Part shown: positions 30,169-43,805 of the stretch, in pieces | Layout: each line of letters opens with the position of its first letter | Position numbering within the stretch: the first letter of the stretch is position 1 | Assembly: GCA_051362555.1 (NCBI GenBank) | Contig: CM120642.1 | Location: 7,564,001-7,628,000, forward strand | Reading direction: 5' to 3' | Length of the DNA: 64,000 nt | Source: Lingula anatina | Taxonomy: Eukaryota; Animalia; Brachiopoda | Translations under genes and position numbers: made by a program | The notes under the pieces: generated by a model | Databases searched by the model: none | Told to the model about the DNA's origin: nothing | Seen by the model: the letters and a program-made list of their open reading frames with translations, nothing else

Positions 30169-33100
30169 CTATACTCTCTTTCCAAACAGTTTCCGTAAAC
30201 TCACGCCCAGAACAAAGTCCACTATTTCAGCAGCTGTCATCAAGGTGCTCCCCAGCACGAGACCCAACGCTCCCCCGATATCTGCGAAGAGGGTCAGAGC
30301 GCTGTACGCCTCCTGTTGCACCACCTCCTCGACGCTGATGTCAGAATAGAAAATATTCAGCATGATGATATTTTCACGGAAGAACGATGTATCGGTGTTG
30401 TTGTACATCGCGATCAGTCTGTTTATGAATACTTCAGACATTCTGGTGTGTGAAATTGAGTGCGTATAAAGGGTACTTTGACAAGCCTCCATGCAATCAC
30501 AGCCATTGTAACCAGCCATCTGTTCTGTGCTAATATTGAAACATTCAAACATGATATCTTTGAGGTTACATGTTCGCTGATCATCGATTGTTTGATTGCC
30601 CGTTTTTGGTTGATAAAACATGCGGCAACCACATGTTTGTGTGTGATTTAGACTGAAAAGAAATATTTAAGTGTCTAATTAGAATAAGTTTCCACAGTTT
30701 CGATCTCATATTATTCATTCTCAAGTCAAAAACTATTTAGGGACTTTTTTAATGTTTTGAATTATTTGTAACTACTGATCGTGCGCGAATCATCTCATTT
30801 CACACACCACTTGCAAACACATTAACACAGTAAACATGGATGTTTGCTTTTTTCTGGACATTTTCCGGAAGACCATGACCCCCCCCCACACACACACACA
30901 CATGGTCAAAAATCGTTATATGTTCCTTAACGTTGCACGTATGCATAACTGCAAAGACGCGTGTAATGTATGGTAATTAATCAACCCTATGTGTTATAAC
31001 GGAGAATGCAACTAAACATACATTATACGATATAAAAAGTAATGTCATTTTCTCTTTTACAAAAGGTAATTCCCTTTTCTCTCTCTATATATATATTCTT
31101 AGGTAAAGAAGTTGATTTTTTTAATGTTAAATATTGTCAAAATGTCAAAAATCATTGTCACGCCTTGAAAAATACTGCAAAAAATGGCAGCTCCAGGTAA
31201 ACGAGAAAAAGTGCAAAATATTAATTTTCAACAAAGCTGGAAAAACAGAACAGCACCTAAAATTCACAATAAATGAAAATATCCTGGAAAACGTTACAGA
31301 ATATACTTATCTAGGTATCACCTTCACCAATACAGGTAACCTCAAGAAAGCAATACACAATCTAAAACAAAAAGCAATGAAGGCCATGTTTGCGCTTAAA
31401 AGCACTTTATAATACTACAGAAATAGGGACATTTTTTGCTCTGTTTAATAATTACAGGAAAACTTATGTGGCGAAGGGAGTCACCGTGATGTTTTGAAAT
31501 GGAATTTAAAAAATAATTATGCAATAAGGCTAATATATTATAATGGCACAATTAACATTAACAAAAATGAAACATGTAATTATTAAAGGTGGGGGTGCAA
31601 ATGCGCCCCACGTAGGAAAAGCTGTAGGGTGGGAGGTGGAAAGAAAAGGAAAGTAAACAAAGAGAAGGGAAGCAGAAACAAGAGACGATAAACGTAATAA
31701 TAAGAGTACGCGTAAAATTTAGAGTGCTTACCTTGTGATTCGTTCAGGAAATCGGAATAAAAATCTAACGATGAAATTTGATGTCTGTTCTTCCTGACAG
31801 CAATAGTGAGACTGGCCTTTGGTCACGTGTTATGGAAACTAGCTACTGATTGGTTCCGCATCGTCATAGTAGGTCAGAGGTCACGTACTGATAGTGTTAT
31901 AATCGCGTATAAACGAAATACCCCGATGACTCCCGAAAGTAATTCTGTGTATTATAAAGTCGGTTATAGCTTTGCGATAACCTTGTATTTATAATACTAC
32001 AGAAATAGGGACATTTTTTGCTCTGTTTAATAATTACAGGAAAACTTATGTGGCGAAGGGAGTCACCGTGATGTTTTGAAATGGAATTTAAAAAATAATT
32101 ATGCAATAAGGCTAATATATTATAATGGCACAATTAACATTAACAAAAATGAAACATGTAATTATTAAAGGTGGGGGTGCAAATGCGCCACAAAAAACCG
32201 GGTTTCCACTGAAAACCTAGGTTTTTTCCCCCCACCCAAAAAATGACCAAGGGCAGGTGAGGGTGGGAGTGGTGAACAAAAAACAAAAGACATATGTAAT
32301 ATATGGCACACGTATATGCGTGTTTTTATGAATTCCGTGAAACAGCACGCAAGTGAACGAAATATAGTCCACATATATTTAGTCTTTCATGTACTGCTTG
32401 TCTGTCAAGTACCTCTTACGTGAGACATGCAGGTAGAAGAGGCCTGGGAATGGCAAGGTATACGGAGTAAGGTACATGTAAAAAGTTGCTGCAATTAGCC
32501 CTCATACTGTGCTGGTTAGGAACATGAAAAAAGTACAGTAGGTAGGAACGGAGAACAAATCATATAAAAATACTATGGAAGGCATTGGAGTCCCAGCAGC
32601 CAAGTGAAAGAAGTCATAGGTCTGACAGCCCACAATGTGCGCCCAAACAAATATGAGCCAGTAAGTGGCATATGTAAAAATAGTATACGAAGCGTACTTG
32701 GCAAAAAAAATTTTTAATATGACATGAATGTCGTATGTGCCCTGGTAAGGGCAAATTATAAGTTGTTGATGTATATGCACCAAGGGGCTGGTATAAGCCC
32801 ATATAATGTTATGAACAAGTGCTAAAAGTAAACACCAAGATTAAGCCATCCGAATATACTTAAGGAACGCATTGGAGTGCCATCGGCCAAGTGAACGAAT
32901 TTGTTGATCAGACAGTCCACGCTGCGCTGCCAAAGTCGCTCCCCCAATGCGGAAACTGTGTGACCGTATGCGAGCACTGTTCAGGCCTGATTGAAGCAGG
33001 CATGCATCCAAGGTTCTGGTGAATTGCGACCGTGTAACAGGACTGCCGTCGCGGTGTATGAACAAGGGTGCATTAGATACTGTCGGCCGTATGTGTAGGA

Positions 33101-36100
33101 AGTTGGTCAAAGAAATCACCGGACAAATAACCGGCTGTGCAACTAACCGCACTCTATGAATGGAAGATGGCGCAGAATGTTTGAAGGAAGTAAACCGGAG
33201 TGTAAATGCAGAGCTTGAGTAATCCCAGTCAATGTTTTCCACTTTCAGGGTGTGATTAGTGGTCGCATCCGTTGTAATTTCACTCACGCGTAGGAGGCCA
33301 AAAAAGGCTGTTGTGAACATCGCTTGATACAATAAAATTTCATAGGAATCTGGAAGGCAGTATCTCAGGTTTTGTAGTAAGATATGGAGGATGGGCACTG
33401 TAATGGGTAATCTTGTATCCTGAGAAGGCATCTGTCTCACTAGACCCTTCAAGGTTTGTTGAACAATGAAAGATTTGGTGGGGTCTGGTAAACTGTCCAT
33501 TTTATACTTGTAGCTTAGTGCAGCCATGTAAGTTCTGATTGACGATGCCCTATACTTCTCGGCTAAATGTTGGGTGAACAAAGCAGTTACAGTGGCGTCT
33601 GCAGGAAAGGCACATAGTCCTGTAAGGTGGGAGAACTCTTGAAGGTGTCGTTCGATCTGCTGATACGTCCTATTGGTGTTGAGTGTCAGTGCAGACTGCA
33701 GTGTCTGTCTTAGTCGAAGATTAAGGTGGCTGGCATGAGACACCTGGGCAGGTGTTCTGGCTGGGGCAGTGCCGTGGGGATACTGCGCCGGAACGTCTGG
33801 AAATCGAAATGAGATAGGGAATCAGCGGCGGTATTGTGTTCTCCTGGTATGTGTTCCGCTTTGTGTAGAATATTCTTTTGTAGACATGTGAGAATTAGTT
33901 TGCGTAAAAGTTTAAGCAAAATTGGATCTTTAGTTGTACATTTGTTTAGAATAAAAATGAGAGCCCCATTGTCAGAATGTATAAGCACTTTCTTATCCCG
34001 GAAGTGGTCCTGCCAGAGCAAAAAAGCAGCAACAATAGGATAACACTCCAAGATCGTGATATGCAAAGTGGCAGCCTCCGGAGGCCAATGTCCGTAAAAC
34101 CATAAATTGCCAAAACATGCGCCAAATCCCTTCGTACTAGATGCATCAGTGTAGAGGTGTAATACATTGGGGTTGGTCCACTCTTCCTCATGGAAGAAGC
34201 CCCTGCCATTGAAAGAGAGAAGAAATGTCCGCCACATATTCAAATCCGCTCGAACCTCCTTATTAAGACGTATATGATGATGTGCTTTGGAAACACCCAT
34301 GGTAAGATCAATTAAGCGTCGCAAATATGGACGCCCTGCTGGAATTACATAGCAACAAAAATTTAAAAGACCTACTATGGATTGCATGTCCTTGAGAGTT
34401 ATTTTCTTGCGCTGCGAATAACTGTTGATGAGACTTAGGCATTTCTGAATTTTGTCCTGTGGCAGTCTAGCTTCTTGGAGGACAGTATCAAGCTCTATGC
34501 CCGCGAACGTGACAGTAGTAGCTGGAGTGGTGGTCTTCTCCTTTGATATAGGAATTCCCATATCAGAACAGGCAAGTAGGAAACGTTGGAGAGCATGTGT
34601 GCAACTGTCCTCGGATGGACTGATGATCAAGAAATCATCCAACAAATGTGTCATGTATGGAATACCCAACAGCGAGGTAGCGATCCATTGTAGAGCGGAG
34701 GAAAATGTCTCAAAGATATTGCAAGAGCATGACAGTCCCATGGGTAGTGTTCGGTCAAAATATAGAATACCCTGATACTGGAAGCCCAGCAGGAAGCGGT
34801 AATCTGGATGGATTGGGATAATGCGAAAAGCATTTTCAATGTCTGTTTTACAAAGGTATGAGCCCCGTCCTGCTTGTTGAATTAAGTTAATGGCATCAGC
34901 AACAGATGCATACTGAACAGAAGAAAATCGTTCGTCAATGCCATCATTGACTGAAAATCCCGCTGGGTGAGATAAGTGGTGGATGAAGCGAAATTTTCCA
35001 GGGGATGCTTTTGGCACTATTCCTACTGGGGAGACTGTAAAATGTAGATAAGGCGAGGTTAAATGTGGACCTGATAAACGTCGTGCTTGGAGTTCTGAAT
35101 TAATTTTGTCCTGAAGCTGTTGGGGCCAGTCCTTCGCCGAAGCCAGGTTTTGATGGGACTGAAGCGGAAGATGGCCATGAAAAGGAATGGTAAATCCGTC
35201 CCTAAAACCAGAAATCAAAAATGATGAGAGAGAGGAGTCATAATCCTGTAAGTAGTGGGATAATCTGATGTAATCCACCGGCGTAACAATGATAGTGTCA
35301 ATCGACTGGTGTTCCCGGTTTTCCTGGATGAAACGAGTGATTGGAGAGGCCCCTTCACTAGAACTTACGTTGTTGCCGAAGCCCTTTGGAATAGGGGTTT
35401 CGGTTGTAAGGGCGAAAGGAGGATTTCTGTCGATTGCGAAAGCAAGAGATACTGGGATGTGAACCTCTGCACCTTGAGCACTGATGGGAAAAGCGGCAGG
35501 TGGAGGCGTCACACTGCTGCCCCTCATTCCATCTGTTGCAGATACCCCTGTGGGAAGTTGAGGCCATGTCCTGAGAGGGGGGTCTTGCGATATAGGTCAA
35601 TTCCGCCAGAAGCACGCCATTAGGATCTTCCCAACGAAAATTGGGGTCAGTCTGTGTGGCCCGGAATTTTTCATCATAAAGACGCCAGTTGGCGTGACGA
35701 TTGGCCTGCATTTCTCCAATTCTGTTAGCATACTGTAGCAAAGGAACAGCCTGAAGGGGGTATTGTTGGAGGTAAATGGCCGAAAATATTTGAAAAGCAC
35801 ACTGCCACTGATTAGGTGAAATGGCATCAGTCTTTTTACTAGCAGGTGCCATGACAATGGAGAACTGGCCATCCTCATCAAATTGTTTCCTGTGAACGAA
35901 GTGCTCCTCGTCCTGCTTTTCTGCTCTGGACAAGGTGTTGGAGGTAGGGGGGATAAGACTTTTAATGGAAATTGGCTCCCTGTTCCAGATCTTTACTTTT
36001 GTGGCGCGTGGAACGTGTTGGTCAAGCGGAGTAGAGACATTACCTGAAGGAGCAGTTACAGCCGAGAAACTGTAGGCAGCTGGCATTCCATGTCCTGGGA

Positions 36101-36720
36101 TAGGCTGTGGAGGGAAACCATGCAAAGCTGGGTTACTCATGTGACCCATGGATGACTGTGGCATAGAGGGAGGATGGACACCCATGTGCCCATATGGCGG
36201 CAGTCCTTGAGTATACGTGGAGGGTGCAGCATGGGAGGGGTTACCCATGTAACCCGAATAGAAAGTACCAGGGGGTAAGGGGTTACCCATGTAACCCACA
36301 GATGGTGCTGTGAGAGTGTTGGTTGGTGGTGGGTTACCCAAGTAACCAGAGAAGTTTGGCAGGTTGGGAAAAGTGGTAGCCGAAAGGTTGGACGGTCCAC
36401 CAACAGCGGCAGTAGATAGGGTGGTGCTTGGAAGATGGGAGCTCACTGAGTGAGACATGGCTGGCAAATACGAAACGGCGCTAGCGGTCCTGGCAGGTGG
36501 GGTGGTGTTGATAGTTGCCGCATCGGTCAGAGCAGGAGGTGCGGCGACGGCACTGTGCATTGTAGGGGGATCTACGAGTTCTCTCCCGCTTTGTACCACC
36601 TGAACTGGTTCCCTGGAGGAGCCTTCTCCTGGGGGAGGGAGAGAGGGTATGTGACTCTGACTCATGACCTGAAAATCGAAAATAATAAGGTGACTCCCTG
36701 AGCAGAGGTAGGCCCTGCCA

Positions 36721-36770
<50 letters not shown>

Positions 36771-39700
36771 AAAATTATATGGATAAATGTGGATATGGGA
36801 TAAATACATATTACTACTAGGAAAGCAATGAGATAACTACAGAACATGCTAAATGCACATGCAAACATGCAACAAATTAAAATGGATGTGGAGGTTTAAT
36901 AGCTGGAACAACCTTATAAATAGAATATGCATACCTGGAGTCTGGGAAGACCCAATTGGATTAGTGCCTTGTAAGGCACAAGGATGAGTAGGCAGAAACG
37001 TCGAAGAAACTAACGCATGTCATAGGGGAAGACCCATGAGAAATATGAAGGCCTTGTAAGGCGCAAATCGCCACTGTTGGGCTCTGTATTGCAGTATGAC
37101 ATTGTGACGGAGAAAATAAATGAGGGGGCCTTGGAAGGCGCCCACGTAATAAAGAGGATACGCAAATGAAATGATGTGAACAGCCTGGGAAGGCCAACGT
37201 AACGTGAGTGCACAAAATCTGAGCCTGGGAAGGCTAAAGTAGTATATATGTGTACCAGCCCTGAAGGGCACGAGTAAAGCCCACGGGGAAGTTTTAGCGT
37301 CTCTAATATGAAATAAGGGAATGTTTGAAATCCCATAAGAATGAGAACTGTATCCATGTAATGCATACTCGGAACGACATTCTTAATATGAGAAAATTGG
37401 CCAAAACTGAATGAGTGTATAATCATGAAAACGTGCCTCATAGCTGTGAACTTACGTGTCTGCTGGGGTGTAGGCCGAGAATAAAGTATTGCCCCTCGGA
37501 TGGCTCTCCAAAATTTGACCATGCCTCGAGAATTTAAGTGGACACCATCCCGAGAAAGTATGTCCTGCCAGGCATCTACCGCTCCAGGGCATCTCCAAAA
37601 TTGGGCATGCGGGTGGGTGGACAGTCTCTGCTGGAGTAGGCTATTGATGGCTGTAACCTGATCATTAAAATCTTCCTGGTAGAGCAGGGTGGGAATTCGA
37701 CCACCAGGAGACTGAGAGCGGCAAAACAACTGACCCCAAAAAATCTGAATATGAGGATTGTAATCGAGGATCATGTGGATGGCTCGAAGGACGGCAGAAA
37801 CGATGGATGCTGGTGAGGTAACTGCTGGGCTGACGTCATTTTCTCCCAGTTGACAAAAAACTACATCGAAGTTGGGCAGCCGAGGCCAAAAATTGGGGTC
37901 GTATAAAAAACTAGTGAGTGTTGCTCCCCCTGAGCAATAAAAATCAGTGGTGAGACCATCAATACTAAAATTGTTTGGTAGAGATGGCTCCTGTTGTAAG
38001 CGCTTTACAAAGCTGTGGCCCATGAGTAAGACCCGTCTCCTGTCGTAGTGCTCCATAGTACTGACGTTGTCACTTGTGATTCGTTCAGGAAATCGGAATA
38101 AAAATCTAACGATGAAATTTGATGTCTGTTCTTCCTGACAGCAATAGTGAGACTCACCTTTGGTCACGTGTTATGGAAACTAGCTACTGATTGGTTCCGC
38201 ATCGTCATAGTAGGTCAGAGGTCACGTACTGATAGTGTTATAATCGCGTATAAACGAAATACCCCGATGACTCCCGAAAGTAATTCTGTGTATTATAAAG
38301 TCGGTTATAGCTTTGCGATAACCTTGTATTTATCCTCCCAAAACATATCTAATCCACTATTACAAATGAAACTATTTGATAAAACTGTAAAACCAATTTT
38401 ACTATATGGTAGCGAGGTATGGGGTCAGGAAATTCTCAAAGAAAAATCACTAAGCCTAGATAAAATCAATAACACGTCCTTCGAGCAAATTCACCTAAAA
38501 ATGTGCAAATGGGTATTAGGAGTGAGAAAAACTGCCAGTAATAATGCCTGCAGAGCAGAATTGGGTAGATACCCAATCCTTACAGATATAATTAAATCCA
38601 TGCAAAAATACCACACCAGACTTAAAAATCTCCCGAATACAAGAATACTGAAACAAACATTTAGCGAAGAAAAACTCCTGAAAATAGATAATTGGACTAA
38701 AACAGAGGCGGCATTTAGACTGAATTGGGGAATTCAACATTGGGATGAAACATCAGACCTAGAAAAAGAAATTAATCTAAAAATCGAAGACCTTTTTTGG
38801 AAAGAATTGAACAAGGAGAACCACAATAAACTGCGTACATATCGAAAAATAAAAAACTCATACGATCTTGAAAATTACTTAAAAATGAACGCCACAAGCT
38901 CAGACAAAAAATACTTAGCCAAAATGAGAATTAGTGACCACGAGCTAGCGATAGAGAAAGGCAGGCACATGAAAATCACCCTGGAACAAAGAACCTGCAC
39001 AAGCTGTAAAACGGAAATAGAGGATGAGAAACATTTCTTCCTCACATGTAGTAAATACCAAATAGAGCGACAAAATATGCTCAGTTCCCTCCCAAACACT
39101 GTGAGACAAAATTATGAATTAGCAGGCAGTGATCAGAAACTATTCATCCTCCTCAACCCTCAAGATCAGAAATCACTAAAAGCATTATCACAGTATATAC
39201 AGTTAGCAACACGATGAAATATCACTTTCTCTCTTTTTATGTAAGTACAATATGGTAGATTCTGTAGTAGACTAGACAGCAAACAATGTTAAATTGTAAC
39301 ATTCAAAGCTGAATAAATTATTATTATTATTATTAAATATTAAAATATCATTGTTTTAAAAATTCACTTACTAACATTCAGCATCACAATTAAGTTTGGT
39401 ATATTTGGGGAAGTACTTCAAAGTTCTCTCTTTGCACTGTCCGTGTGGGGGAGGGAGATTCGACAGCTGCAAATATAATATAATATAATATAATATAATA
39501 TAATATAATATAATATAATATAATATAATATAATATAATATAATATAAAGATGTGAGGTGCGTTGCATCCGTTACTTCATGGACAGGCACATCTAGATGT
39601 CACCACAGGTTAGGTGAGTTATCAACCCTTGTGTTCAAAATTTATTGACGCATCGATTTTCATATTTAGAATACGGAATAAACAAAGTAATTAGTGTGAA

Positions 39701-40157: not shown

Positions 40158-42014
40158 AAGTCTTTTTTATAAATTGGCCACAATAAATATAAAAATCATT
40201 ACGACTATTGTCTAGCAATTAAAATGTGATACTAATAAATACATTTAAAACATATTCTTATCTTCTGGTTATTTCTATATGAAACCTTTTGTTCACATGT
40301 ACTTCCAATTTTAATAACGCTTAAAAGCGTTAATATAAAATGTATAAGCTATTGTAGCATGGTTTACCGTGAAGCCGGATATTGTGGTGAAAGATGCATA
40401 ATCACTCTGTTGTGCAAAAAGATACAGCTTTAATCCAAACACGCTGCCTTCTGTTTCAACACTCTTCAATTCACCTTCTTAAAAAAAAAGAAGCAAGAAC
40501 AACAGCAAGAACAACTACAATGCACTACCTCAGAATCCAAATGCCCCAATAAATGCATTCAAAACAACACGCATTTGGTCTTGTTCATCATCTGTGCATA
40601 TTTAAACATACATGTAGCATAGTTTTATCAATCTATTTACTTTGAATCAGGAAACATAGAAAAAAACAAATAATGCTTTTCATGATAATCATTTTTCGAT
40701 GCCGGTTTTCCCCGCTTTATTGATGTTAAACATATCATAGTGCCCCAAAATGGACGCTCCCACCATTAATGTAATATGCTCTGAAACGTCGTAGTTTTAC
40801 GTTATCAGGGCTGGTTCTATTTTGAGGTGGCAGCATTAACCTTGCTTTACCTGCGTTAAATTGAATACAAGATCCCATCTCAGTTTCGATCATTGAAAAA
40901 TCGCCATCTGTACACATCACATTTTTGAAGTAGCAAAGCTGCAAGGAAAAATGTAATGCATTTTACGATGCTGTAATAGAATTTTATGGAATGTAAGGAT
41001 TAGAAGAAGCTTCGTGTCATTCGTGTTGAAAAGGCCCCAAAACCATCAGCAGCACTAAAACTGGTGTCGGTTTAGAACAATATATTGAAGAAAATTAAGA
41101 ACATTGAGTTTTAAATTTGTAGGGATTTAGTGAGAAGATACTGAAACAATTAACGCCAAATAGCCTGCAACAAGAAAGCGTATCACTTAATATATTTAAG
41201 AATAATGTTGACAAAACGACTACAGCCTATGACTCTTTTTCTAATGAAACAAAAATTTTTATCAATCTCAGTAATACTGAAATGATAATGTTATTAATGT
41301 CCTTTAAAAACTATTTTTATATGTCACATGTATGGAATACTTAAAACGTGCTGAAGATCAAGCCCTTGATAAACATTAAAAAGACTTTTCTGATATGCTG
41401 GGGTATTGTACAATTTTAGAATAATGTACACATGCATTTCTACTTACTGCCGGCATAAGATCCGCCATTTTGTATTGGTTTCTGGTGTGGAAATCTGTCC
41501 AGTTGTATTGCTCGATATTAGTAAAGTTTGGGTGATTGAAGACAATATCAAAGTAGTTTGCCTGTTCAAGATGTCCGTTCGCTTTGAGATACGGCAGCTT
41601 AAACATATTGTTGTTGCAGATGGTTACTGTGGGGAAGTGAATTGAGTCGTTGTGATGAAATTTTATATCCACCGACGCTGGGTTCTCGAGGAAATAGGAA
41701 ATGCGGTTCCAAAGATGGAAAATTAAGAAACCTGACCCACATAAAACGAACGCTAGCCAGATTAATCGCCTGACAGGTGAGAATTTAGGATTTGCCACCT
41801 GCTTCATTCCGAGAATGCTAACGTTATTGGCAAATTCAGATATCTCATCCTTTATATTTGGGATGGTTTCATCCTTATGCTGGTTTGGCTTACGCTTGGT
41901 AATGTTGGTGCCAGAATGGTGTGACTTGTCTCTTAAGTCGGCACGAAAATTGTTGTTCTGTTTTATAAATTCTGTTCCTTTTTCTTCAACAAAAAATGGA
42001 TATACGCCAGACAT
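30169..42014 (-). CDS. DEG/ENaC (ASIC-like) channel subunit, copy 2, about 480 aa
   Basis: Exons 42014-41448, 40938-40851, 40477-40368, 39942-39844, 39466-39372, 30652-30169. Internal exon sizes (88/110/99/95) and phases match copy 1. The last intron is expanded to 8.7 kb by nested insertions. Confidence 0.92.
31411..31607 (-). repeat. Split direct repeat B2 (3' terminus)
   Basis: Identical to 31993-32189 (offset 582). Contains ATTAAA on the minus strand at about 31444-31449, a candidate poly(A) signal. Confidence 0.95.
31622..31731 (-). other. Intron-like GT-AG segment filling most of the A2-B2 spacer
   Basis: Minus strand: CAAG|GTAAGC at the exact A2 boundary, then a roughly 60-nt polypyrimidine tract ending CCCTACAG. 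Confidence 0.6.
31732..31992 (-). repeat. Split direct repeat A2
   Basis: Matches 38073-38333 (offset 6341) except GG at 31814-31815 versus CA at 38155-38156. Confidence 0.95.
31993..32189 (-). repeat. Split direct repeat B1
   Basis: Abuts A2 at the junction GTATT-TAT-AATAC. Confidence 0.95.
32841..33743 (-). CDS. Tyrosine recombinase of the retrotransposon
   Basis: SAM-like N-terminus (SSIRTYMAAL) and catalytic motifs AFFGLLRVSE, HSFRIGGAT, GRWHSNAFLKYIR. Overlaps the RT/RH stop by 34 bp. Confidence 0.95.
   Translation of the reverse strand: MSHASHLNLRLRQTLQSALTLNTNRTYQQIERHLQEFSHLTGLCAFPADATVTALFTQHLAEKYRASSIRTYMAALSYKYKMDSLPDPTKSFIVQQTLKGLVRQMPSQDTRLPITVPILHILLQNLRYCLPDSYEILLYQAMFTTAFFGLLRVSEITTDATTNHTLKVENIDWDYSSSAFTLRFTSFKHSAPSSIHRVRLVAQPVICPVISLTNFLHIRPTVSNAPLFIHRDGSPVTRSQFTRTLDACLLQSGLNSARIRSHSFRIGGATLAAQRGLSDQQIRSLGRWHSNAFLKYIRMA
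33710..35527 (-). CDS. Reverse transcriptase-RNase H of the DIRS-order retrotransposon
   Basis: RT: KFRFIHHLS, KTDIENAFRIIPI, LPMGLSCS, HLLDDFL. RNase H: YTDAS, ITILE, HSDN, HIPGEHNTAADSLS. Overlaps the gag 3' end. The true start is uncertain. Confidence 0.95.
   Translation of the reverse strand: MRGSSVTPPPAAFPISAQGAEVHIPVSLAFAIDRNPPFALTTETPIPKGFGNNVSSSEGASPITRFIQENREHQSIDTIIVTPVDYIRLSHYLQDYDSSLSSFLISGFRDGFTIPFHGHLPLQSHQNLASAKDWPQQLQDKINSELQARRLSGPHLTSPYLHFTVSPVGIVPKASPGKFRFIHHLSHPAGFSVNDGIDERFSSVQYASVADAINLIQQAGRGSYLCKTDIENAFRIIPIHPDYRFLLGFQYQGILYFDRTLPMGLSCSCNIFETFSSALQWIATSLLGIPYMTHLLDDFLIISPSEDSCTHALQRFLLACSDMGIPISKEKTTTPATTVTFAGIELDTVLQEARLPQDKIQKCLSLINSYSQRKKITLKDMQSIVGLLNFCCYVIPAGRPYLRRLIDLTMGVSKAHHHIRLNKEVRADLNMWRTFLLSFNGRGFFHEEEWTNPNVLHLYTDASSTKGFGACFGNLWFYGHWPPEAATLHITILECYPIVAAFLLWQDHFRDKKVLIHSDNGALIFILNKCTTKDPILLKLLRKLILTCLQKNILHKAEHIPGEHNTAADSLSHFDFQTFRRSIPTALPQPEHLPRCLMPATLIFD
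35358..36665 (-). CDS. Gag-like protein with low-complexity N-terminus and C-terminal zinc fingers
   Basis: The likely start is ATG 36665, 3 nt after a strong acceptor TTTTCGATTTTCAG|GTCATG. DIRS-type gag core (KVKIWNREPI, WQCAFQIFSAIY, WRLYDEKFR) and CNRWNEGQQCDASTCRFSHQCSRCRGSHPSISC. Confidence 0.85.
   Translation of the reverse strand: MSQSHIPSLPPPGEGSSREPVQVVQSGRELVDPPTMHSAVAAPPALTDAATINTTPPARTASAVSYLPAMSHSVSSHLPSTTLSTAAVGGPSNLSATTFPNLPNFSGYLGNPPPTNTLTAPSVGYMGNPLPPGTFYSGYMGNPSHAAPSTYTQGLPPYGHMGVHPPSMPQSSMGHMSNPALHGFPPQPIPGHGMPAAYSFSAVTAPSGNVSTPLDQHVPRATKVKIWNREPISIKSLIPPTSNTLSRAEKQDEEHFVHRKQFDEDGQFSIVMAPASKKTDAISPNQWQCAFQIFSAIYLQQYPLQAVPLLQYANRIGEMQANRHANWRLYDEKFRATQTDPNFRWEDPNGVLLAELTYIARPPSQDMASTSHRGICNRWNEGQQCDASTCRFSHQCSRCRGSHPSISCFRNRQKSSFRPYNRNPYSKGLRQQRKF
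36940..37269. repeat. Array of 7 short hairpins with a conserved 4-nt loop in the SGNH-gag spacer
   Basis: GTCT-GGGA-AGAC 36940; GTGCCT-TGTA-AGGCAC 36964; GCCT-TGTA-AGGC 37051; GCCT-TGGA-AGGC 37128; GCCT-GGGA-AGGC 37183; AGCCT-GGGA-AGGCT 37222; GCCC-TGAA-GGGC 37258. Confidence 0.8.
37456..38056 (-). CDS. SGNH/GDSL hydrolase (esterase) domain encoded by the retrotransposon, 5' of gag; 3' end uncertain
   Basis: Block I LLMGHSF, block II SGGA, block III QLGEND, block V RDGVHLN. ATG at 38056. A GTAAGT donor at 37455 follows the domain. Unspliced, the frame runs on to 37010. Confidence 0.85.
38073..38333 (-). repeat. Split direct repeat A1 (5' terminus; probable promoter region)
   Basis: Contains a CCAAT box (GATTGG on + at about 38189-38194), an E-box (GTCACGTG at about 38163) and a consensus donor AAG|GTGAGT with the intron starting at 38157 on the minus strand. 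Confidence 0.9.
39474..39549. repeat. (ATAAT)n / (ATTAT)n microsatellite next to a splice acceptor of channel copy 2
   Basis: About 15 units. The same satellite lies at 48069-48121 (copy 3) and 21298-21326 (copy 1). Confidence 0.9.
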
Positions 42015-43805
42015 TTTCTTCTTGGTTGCAACCTACAAAGAGAAACCACGTAATTGCACGAAATGGATATTGAAATCTTACTCCTTTGTTTCGAATTTTT
42101 TAAACATGGTTTTTGACATTTCAATACATTGTTGTTTTACCTTTTCTTCCATCAGTCTCTTTTATGCCTAAGACAGTAATGTAATTTCTTTTTAATGAGC
42201 ATTTTTTGTGTATTTTACATTTATAATTGTTGATTGCAACTTAACCATCACATTACAATACGATGAATCATCACACAGATTTTCTGGATTTTCTGTAATA
42301 TTCTATCCGAATCTATCCATATATATTACCATCCTCTTACCTGAGTTTAAAAATGTTTTGTACTGTCGCGTTATATCTAAAATTAGTCACTTTTCCCCCA
42401 TAACTCTCCGTTATAATATATCAATCAAAGTATTGCAATTGCTTTATAAGGAAATGGTTTAATAATTGACCTAGATTTACAAGTGCTATTTATACAGATG
42501 ATCTCACTGTGATAGAATGATAACTTTTTAATACCTTTTTGTTGCTTTCTTATACTTTTACTTTTTTCTATTAAAATATTAGTCGTACCATTTGACATGT
42601 ACTTGCATTCTTTGACTTAGTGACATGTAATTTCATCAAACTTTAAATGAACAAAATAAACTAATATTTTGCATAGTTTTGCAGTAATTTTGTGTACCGT
42701 GTTCGTCAATAAAAATGAACCAGTACGACAGGTTGTCATTTGTGTGTAAAGTTGTATAAGAGTCACAATTCCAGTGCACTTTACGTTATTATAAAATAAA
42801 TTTGCATCATTCCGGATCCGAAGACATACGCATACACTTACCTAGCAACCTCGGACACTTCGACGATGAAGTTAAAATGAAATGAGATATCGCACTTAAG
42901 TTTTTACTCTATCGACCATATTAATGCATAGATCTCTGTTTACTTGGCTACTAATTGTGTGTTTAAACGGGAATGAATTGACCTAATCCAGCACTCCTAA
43001 AGAATGGGAATGGGGAGGGCGGAAATGAGGGAAGCATCCAGACGTCACGTCCGGAACAATTTATGTTCCAACCTGGACGGATATAGGCTCAAAATGATGA
43101 CATCGATTTAAGTGTCATTTCACAAAAAGTGACCCTGGCGTTCACATATTGTTCAATACTTTCATAATTCTGACTTGCCCCATTATTTTTGCTGTCTTTT
43201 GTATTATAACTAACAGTGTGGAAAGAAATCAACAGGAATTAAGAATTGATGTGAAACAGTTGCAGTCGCCAGGAAGACGGGGCTATCGGTACTAATTAGA
43301 TGACCAAGGCACATCGCTGCATATGCGCCCTTGCAGGTTTTCCTCGATATTGCCACACCTGGATTAGTGATTGTCGTGTTCTATGGGAAGGAAACTATTG
43401 ATATTTATATCTTGGTGCCGTTAAGCCTAGTTTATTTATAGTGTGTGAACATTAATTGCTCTACTCACGTTATTTAGTCGTCGCTGTAAGTAAACAAATT
43501 AATGGTCACTTTGAAGACAAGTCGATAGGACTAAATGGCGGTCATTTCTTAAAACAAATCCAGTGAATTTATTACATAATGGTGGTTAAATCCTAGCAGT
43601 AAATAATTATATACTCATTTCATTATAACATCGAGGAAGTAAGATATGCAATTTCCCAATACGTGTTAGGCCTAGAGGTTTGTTATTTTTTGTAGTTTTT
43701 TTTTCAAAAGCGGATAGTGCTTTTCATCCATCCGTGTTAGTTTACACTTATATTCTTTTTGCTACTTCTACCTTTGCTCTGACGCTGTTTTCCATATCAA
43801 ATAAA

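Follow-up and report, generated by a model that had tools for sequence, protein, structure and literature searches.

The closest known system to the locus analyzed here is the Ngaro superfamily of tyrosine-recombinase retrotransposons (order DIRS), in its hydrolase-bearing type. Xenopus DIRS-53_XT, an example presented in bioRxiv 10.1101/2021.08.05.455354, has split direct repeats, gag, reverse transcriptase/RNase H (RT/RH) and tyrosine recombinase (YR) genes, an extra SGNH hydrolase and no methyltransferase match. The terms "hairpin" and "stem-loop" are absent from the main text of that article. No hairpin arrays such as those described below were found in the DIRS/Ngaro literature searched, and no packaging signal is given there for DIRS-order retrotransposons.

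The window, a 64,000-nt stretch of Lingula anatina DNA, contains an intact-looking Ngaro-type tyrosine-recombinase retrotransposon of 6.9 kb on the minus strand, which surrounds an array of small hairpins. Its features are, in sense order:

38073-38333, minus strand: split direct repeat A1, 261 nt, 99% identical to A2
37010-38053, minus strand: SGNH/GDSL hydrolase ORF (PF13472, E 1.2e-07), domain end near 37460
36669-37459, minus strand: hydrolase-gag spacer, ~790 nt, a likely gag-mRNA intron judging by splice-site motifs
36940-37269, minus strand: seven hairpin motifs of 12 nt each, GYCY-UHCM-RGRC in the sense RNA, between the hydrolase and gag genes
37258-37269, 37223-37234, 37183-37194, 37128-37139, 37051-37062, 36966-36977 and 36940-36951, minus strand: the seven array cores
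37020-37039, minus strand: eighth related hairpin, 7 bp, hexaloop UCUUCC, absent from the initial annotation
35358-36665, minus strand: gag-like ORF, 435 aa, with C-terminal CCCH and CCHC zinc-finger motifs
33710-35596, minus strand: RT/RNase H ORF (PF00078, E 2.1e-13)
32841-33821, minus strand: tyrosine recombinase ORF (PF00589, E 2.3e-06)
32424-32934, minus strand: degenerate duplication of ~290 nt that begins in the recombinase C-terminus and contains looser hairpins at 32785-32800, 32657-32669 and 32442-32454
32738-32753, minus strand: hairpin UGCCCU-UACC-AGGGCA, the sole true motif match outside the spacer
31988-32192, minus strand: split direct repeat B1
31732-31992, minus strand: split direct repeat A2; next come donor-like AAG/GTAAGCAC and, ahead of B2, a stretch of 121 nt
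31406-31610, minus strand: split direct repeat B2, the element's 3' end

Judged by its sequence, the layout is that of the Ngaro plan, as drawn from parts of bioRxiv 10.1101/2021.08.05.455354, PMC7192593 and PMC6681497. The gag-like, RT/RH and YR ORFs all lie on one strand, and the split direct repeats are ordered A1 ... B1 A2 B2, the B repeats being 205 nt long and 99.5–100% identical. Unlike the DIRS-53_XT type, A2 and B2 are 121 nt apart (31611-31731). The hydrolase lies 5' of gag in the window element and in 36 of 79 related metagenome loci, whereas it follows YR in the amphibian elements treated in the relevant parts of bioRxiv 10.1101/2021.08.05.455354. Some metagenome contigs also place the hydrolase after the recombinase; L003 is a 6089-nt repeat unit, so such 3' placements may be circular permutations. 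The pol ORF stops behind its RNase H part, and a profile search of it returned only RVT_1 and a weak RT_RNaseH, with no methyltransferase match; lack of that domain sets Ngaro apart from the DIRS-like and PAT-like groups. The gag ORF of the window element has no Pfam hit and was assigned by position and zinc-finger motifs. Its product has a Pro/Ser-rich N-terminus, while the Gags of most relatives start with a basic MPPK/R-type arm, and its knuckle carries Ser at a position occupied by an aromatic residue in 13 of 16 parsed relatives. Named RT relatives (sea anemone, scallop, hemichordate) are 47–50% identical to the window RT, which forms a long branch (1.48) with no supported neighbor in a tree restricted to the window element and metagenome relatives.

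The element interrupts a LINE-like remnant (31131-31412 and 38334-39217), and pieces of amiloride-sensitive sodium-channel genes lie nearby (30169-30666 and 41376-42032); together with the named RT relatives, these pieces indicate an animal host. Contigs of DNA runs X1 and X2 show other flanks for the family as well as an empty site inside the LINE-like remnant, and it follows that the family is multi-copy and mobile. As DNA, the B/A junction adopts a modest fold (−7.7 kcal/mol, with no control) from which nothing is concluded.

The initial annotation described seven hairpins with spacers of 12–71 nt, and all seven lie where it placed them, with the loops and spacers it gave. The pattern GYCYTHCMRGRC, derived from the array copies themselves, matches seven times, always on the minus (sense) strand and inside the 330 nt of 36940-37269; the rest of the 64 kb has no match on either strand. 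Enrichment over dinucleotide shuffles, the check proposed at that stage, is clear: seven GC-rich tetraloop hairpins of at least 4 bp are observed, against a mean of 0.30 and a maximum of 3 in 2000 shuffles. Over the wider interval 36780-37460 the same class again gives seven, with 0.36 expected and a shuffle maximum of 5. A motif-free array statistic scores 6 on the window spacer (shuffle mean 1.7, maximum 4 of 200); among 338 real 750-nt segments, both strands included, 6 is reached at the array alone and all others score at most 4.

In the sense RNA the array loops are UCCC, UCCA, UACA and UUCA, none of which contains G. The proposed compensatory changes in the stems are real, one copy having U-A for C-G and another C-G for U-A. 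Single hairpins fold at −4.5 to −11 kcal/mol each, and when the entire spacer is folded locally, five of the seven have pair probabilities above 0.5, while the other two (0.12 and 0.24) are outcompeted by pairing elsewhere. The spacer as a whole folds about equally on the sense and antisense strands (z −2.5 against −2.3). An Rfam covariance-model search of the element returned four chance-level matches, none of them inside the array. A 14-nt likeness to HIV TAR on the antisense strand (37218-37231) is one that we take to be chance.

The hydrolase frame of the window copy runs open through five hairpins beyond the domain end, raising the question of whether the motif is a peptide repeat in a coding extension of the hydrolase. 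The 149 open codons, equalled in 36 of 5000 shuffles, would suit such an extension. Against it, the motifs occur in all three frames, diverged copies of the spacer region carry indels of 1, 2 and 4 nt, and all 36 relatives of the same gene order stop 6–60 nt past the hydrolase match. On these three grounds a coding role for the spacer was rejected, and the extension is considered most improbable.

The array had further been placed inside a gag splice, and the sequence agrees in that donor-like and acceptor-like sites flank it. The donor-like site (AC/GTAAGT) is at 37455, and an acceptor-like TTTTCAG has its end at 36669, leaving 3 nt to the gag ATG. In each of the five array-bearing elements a donor-like site precedes the hydrolase and a YAG acceptor-like site lies 3–9 nt before the gag ATG; overall, the upstream donor-like site is found in 9 of 21 elements, and a YAG with a pyrimidine run no more than 20 nt from the gag ATG in 13 of 21, a raw count with no shuffle control. 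From these splice-site motifs we infer that the spacer is removed from gag mRNA, and any of the donor candidates would take the array out with it. RNA runs contributed 21 and 4 reads, none spliced, with a depth of at most 2 over the array and a covered stretch that excludes the acceptor; the few reads over the array have their first mate on the plus strand in all cases. Within the spacer, a sense-strand run of 42 A (36724-36765) lies 55 nt before the acceptor-like site, and no target-site duplication was noticed with it.

The repeats hint that the window copy stems from RNA in which a first intron was gone and the array was retained. A1 joins the hydrolase leader directly (38073) at an AG where A2 goes on with GTAAG, and GTAAGCAC continues A2 and likewise the upstream donor of L004. 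In a 1786-nt contig of run X2 the match ends at that same A-repeat AG, with seven letters left. A1 and A2 differ only at two adjacent positions (38155-38156), which create a GT donor-like site in A1; this GT (38157-38156) reads GC in all aligned contigs of runs X1 and X2.

Copies from the same species were taken from sequencing-run contigs, of which run X20 yielded none, and relatives from metagenome loci. In a contig ~86% identical to the window copy, three cores differ at one of their 36 positions and the flanks at 12 of 99 (one-sided p 0.09, with 25 of the contig's 29 differences listed); the lone core change is a U-G wobble on the sense strand. Contigs from three runs keep the cores and have 89–92 nt replacing spacers of 47–50 nt, and contigs from two runs have 56 nt in place of a 153-nt spacer. 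The array might be a neutral relic, left by tandem duplication of one palindromic 12-mer. Such an origin would fit the readiness with which these regions duplicate, the match of two array units at 18 of 20 nt, and the p of 0.09 in the same-species comparison of cores and flanks. It accords poorly with cores that are near-identical while their spacers lack detectable similarity, with the complementary pairing of stem changes, and with hairpins that outlast their flanks between families. A neutral relic is accordingly thought unlikely, a shade more so than the reverse-transcription and DNA-level readings discussed below.

The comparison between families draws on a metagenome scan that gave 79 loci at 43–53% RT identity. 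The 36 that share the order hydrolase-spacer-gag-RT were the source of 20 hand-picked family representatives. No array of the exact window motif occurs in any of the 79 loci, and single matches were limited to one family of six loci plus one antisense match in L023. The viral contigs searched held no relative of the element; a protein search with the hydrolase gave seven distant proteins first and 525 in a wider search, without DNA context. Four of the 20 families have spacer arrays of their own (L001, L029 and L004, p 0.005 each; L068, p 0.02), the loop being UGUAGU in L001/L029 and, with GGA/UCC closing it, UUYR in L004/L068. The L021 spacer has small hairpins in units repeated in tandem (p 0.03), and the motif-free statistic detects no array in the remaining 15 of 20 spacers. 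Array scores of at least 5 are seen in 5 of 72 segments touching the spacer and in 0 of 242 elsewhere. L001 and L029 differ at 4 of 79 positions inside hairpins and at 55 of 267 outside them (p 0.0006); for L004 and L068 the counts are 7 of 56 and 38 of 140 (p 0.04). Within two internal duplications of L004 the hairpins are no better conserved than the rest (p 0.78 and 0.46). Rfam gave 0 matches in 19 related loci.

A clade of seven families (L025:795-1070, L066, L031, L033, L038, L021 and L065) has, instead of an array, one larger conserved spacer fold. This comprises a GAGUGUA...UGCACUC helix that encloses hairpins, together with helices of longer range, has no Rfam match, and shows two-sided change in 5 of 18 predicted pairs.

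Covariation exceeds shuffled controls in the window array (0.45 vs 0.18, 2 of 500 shuffles as high), in the UUYR hairpins (0.41 vs 0.23, 0/500, with 15 of 25 loop occurrences used) and in the ANGG hairpins described below (0.65 vs 0.23, 0/500, with 23 of 24 copies of one register after exclusion of one near-duplicate), and G-U cells outnumber A-C cells by 33 to 1; because alignments A2, A3 and largely A4 were picked as hairpins, and the copies in all sets are related, these covariation values and G-U counts are inflated. The UGUAGU set (alignment A5), chosen by loop only and using all 12 occurrences, is the fair test, and its effect is modest (0.27 vs 0.15, 2/500). Pairs with two-sided change in this set are not significant (116/500). 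The hairpin units, at 12–21 nt, hold too little information for a covariance model.

Sense-strand composition somewhat favors G-U. The direction of the G-U/A-C asymmetry points to a folded sense RNA and away from cDNA or duplex DNA, and bears on the suggestion that the motifs act at the DNA level, as palindromes for a dimeric DNA-binding protein or as hairpins on single-stranded cDNA. The perfect 4-bp inverted arms suit that suggestion, as do the single-stranded cDNA produced by DIRS-1 (mentioned in part of PMC7192593) and the position of the array upstream of gag, where an internal promoter might lie. Yet the arm sequences vary while complementarity stays, all copies have one orientation, and sense G-U pairs, which are common where A-C is nearly absent, would be mismatches on the cDNA strand. 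We regard sites acting at the DNA level as unlikely. The array is predicted, with considerable confidence, to fold on the sense RNA. The initial annotation also argued for selection on structure, and this is upheld by cores that outlast their spacers in diverged copies and by covarying arrays in the same spacer and the 3' region of relatives; selection on RNA structure is very probable.

A repetition of the hairpins past the stop of the recombinase gene had been claimed as well. The four sequences exist, but only 32738-32753 fits the motif (1 vs 0.046 expected, p about 0.045). GC-rich tetraloop hairpins as a class are not enriched in the 3' region (1 vs 0.35, p 0.30). The hairpin at 32442 is the counterpart, with an extra A, of that at 32738 in a 65%-identical duplication of ~290 nt, and since the two are paired by duplication it is no independent case; the other two are loose look-alikes. 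The end of the recombinase gene is repeated in degenerate form ~290 and 540 nt downstream (32343-32934). No 5'-to-3' echo was found in L001 and L004, where it was also sought, and the echo in the window element is weak.

A repeat search behind the recombinase of relatives revealed a different shared unit: a stem, a single bulged base on the 5' side, one or two further pairs and, with C-G as its closing pair, an ANGG loop. The definition C[ANGG]G was made after the fact, and in the 20 of 43 clusters with enough 3' sequence it counts 50 copies against 1.8 expected. At least one such hairpin is present in 14 of 19 related families and at least three in nine. The antisense strands contain none, 900 nt of RT per cluster contain five in total, and the window element has no C[ANGG]G hairpin. 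Two to six of these hairpins, with covarying lower stems, occur in L003, L006, L010, L011, L017, L028, L040, L047, L059, L061, L062 and L073, an example array being L061:5537-6130. A link between the aromatic knuckle residue of Gag and the ANGG array was considered and rejected, as four aromatic knuckles lack an array and one non-aromatic knuckle has one.

We propose, tentatively and at slightly less than even odds, that the array is a multivalent protein-binding platform on unspliced RNA, the predicted binder most likely being the element's own Gag. The seven copies of one inverted-repeat motif would each form a hairpin in the sense RNA and jointly offer Gag its binding sites. Splicing of gag mRNA would remove the spacer, leaving the tag only on spacer-retaining RNA, and the tag would then select unspliced RNA for copying. 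Local duplication would multiply the hairpin unit, selection would hold loop and pairing while spacers decay, and the loop would drift separately in each lineage. Gag is preferred because each family has a uniform loop, distinct from those of other families. Evidence against the proposal includes the loops without G, the weak echo, and L001 and L004, whose near-identical zinc fingers and common 3' array accompany different 5' loops. The 15 related spacers lacking an array, the failure of the exact motif to form one in the 79 loci, the L004 duplications and the similar folding of the antisense strand also count against it.

A host factor is placed close behind Gag because the loops lack the purines favored by retroviral Gag and similar zinc fingers occur with different 5' loops. 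Such a protein would bind the hairpins and control intron-retaining RNA, through nuclear export, the balance between hydrolase/genomic RNA and gag splicing, or germ-cell transport. The location of the array inside a likely intron suits this, and the L001/L029 loop contains GUAGU, which we take to be a Musashi site and count in favor of a host factor. Unspliced retroviral RNAs also use structured export elements, according to parts of PMC12789967. Three unrelated loops at one position, however, are more readily reconciled with a rapidly changing partner encoded by the element than with a single conserved host protein, and neither the element nor the 19 related loci gave an Rfam match. Control by a host protein is thus possible and somewhat doubtful.

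The hairpins might instead aid reverse transcription, by pausing RT, by priming or in strand transfer. Spacer swaps have their breaks no further than 3 nt from hairpin ends, tandem duplications abound in the spacers and 3' regions of these elements, and the DIRS primer is stated to be unknown, with a 3' hairpin suggested, in the pertinent part of PMC7192593. Priming does not, on the other hand, need an array in the middle of the element, far from the terminal repeats and with a conserved loop, and a role in reverse transcription seems improbable.

Returning to Gag as the preferred binder, it is interesting to speculate on a two-part code by which Ngaro retrotransposons would mark their RNA: the Gag zinc fingers would read the 3' ANGG array, and a family-specific array in the gag intron would mark unspliced RNA, the window lineage having swapped both for its pyrimidine-loop hairpin. 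This is a speculative extension; if true, it would give the DIRS order its first described RNA recognition signals, as far as the literature searched goes. Whichever protein binds, the hairpin, being short, repeated and covarying and having a loop specific to each family, provides a handle for studying RNA recognition in this order, and if a host factor binds, the array would show how intron-retaining transposon RNA exits the nucleus or reaches the germ line.

Among known RNA elements, the histone 3' stem-loop has a short GC-rich stem closed by U-A and a pyrimidine tetraloop with U at loop position 3. The array hairpins resemble this consensus in their short GC-rich stem, U-A closing pair and pyrimidine tetraloop; they differ in having C at loop position 3 in 8 of 8 copies, a stem of mostly 4–5 bp, and no Rfam match. 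The iron-responsive element was also compared, and Rfam gave no match to it in the array.

The likeness to retroviral psi, as outlined in parts of PMC12789967, lies in stem-loops in non-coding RNA upstream of gag, a zinc-finger Gag, and possible discrimination between unspliced and spliced RNA. Psi consists of dissimilar stem-loops whose unpaired purines are Gag sites, retroviral Gag sites being purine-rich (both from those parts of PMC12789967), whereas the array is seven copies of one pyrimidine-loop hairpin. Unlike in the psi system, gag of the window element would come from spliced RNA. Purine- or G-rich loops of the psi type are absent from the window array and are found only in the ANGG arrays of relatives, whose loops are closer to psi than are those of the window. 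By analogy, the array would work like a multi-copy stem-loop recognition signal. It shares with the packaging signals of single-stranded RNA viruses (STNV, HBV, enterovirus), as treated in parts of PMC5699041, PMC3593212, PMC7612645 and PMC7793301, the use of several degenerate stem-loops with a common loop motif, which in the viruses are read by their own structural protein. The viral signals in those accounts are dispersed through the genome and have reported coat-protein binding, whereas the window copies are clustered in 330 nt of a retrotransposon. Should Gag bind them, a retroelement class outside the LTR group would be choosing its RNA through a multi-copy code of the kind used by small RNA viruses.
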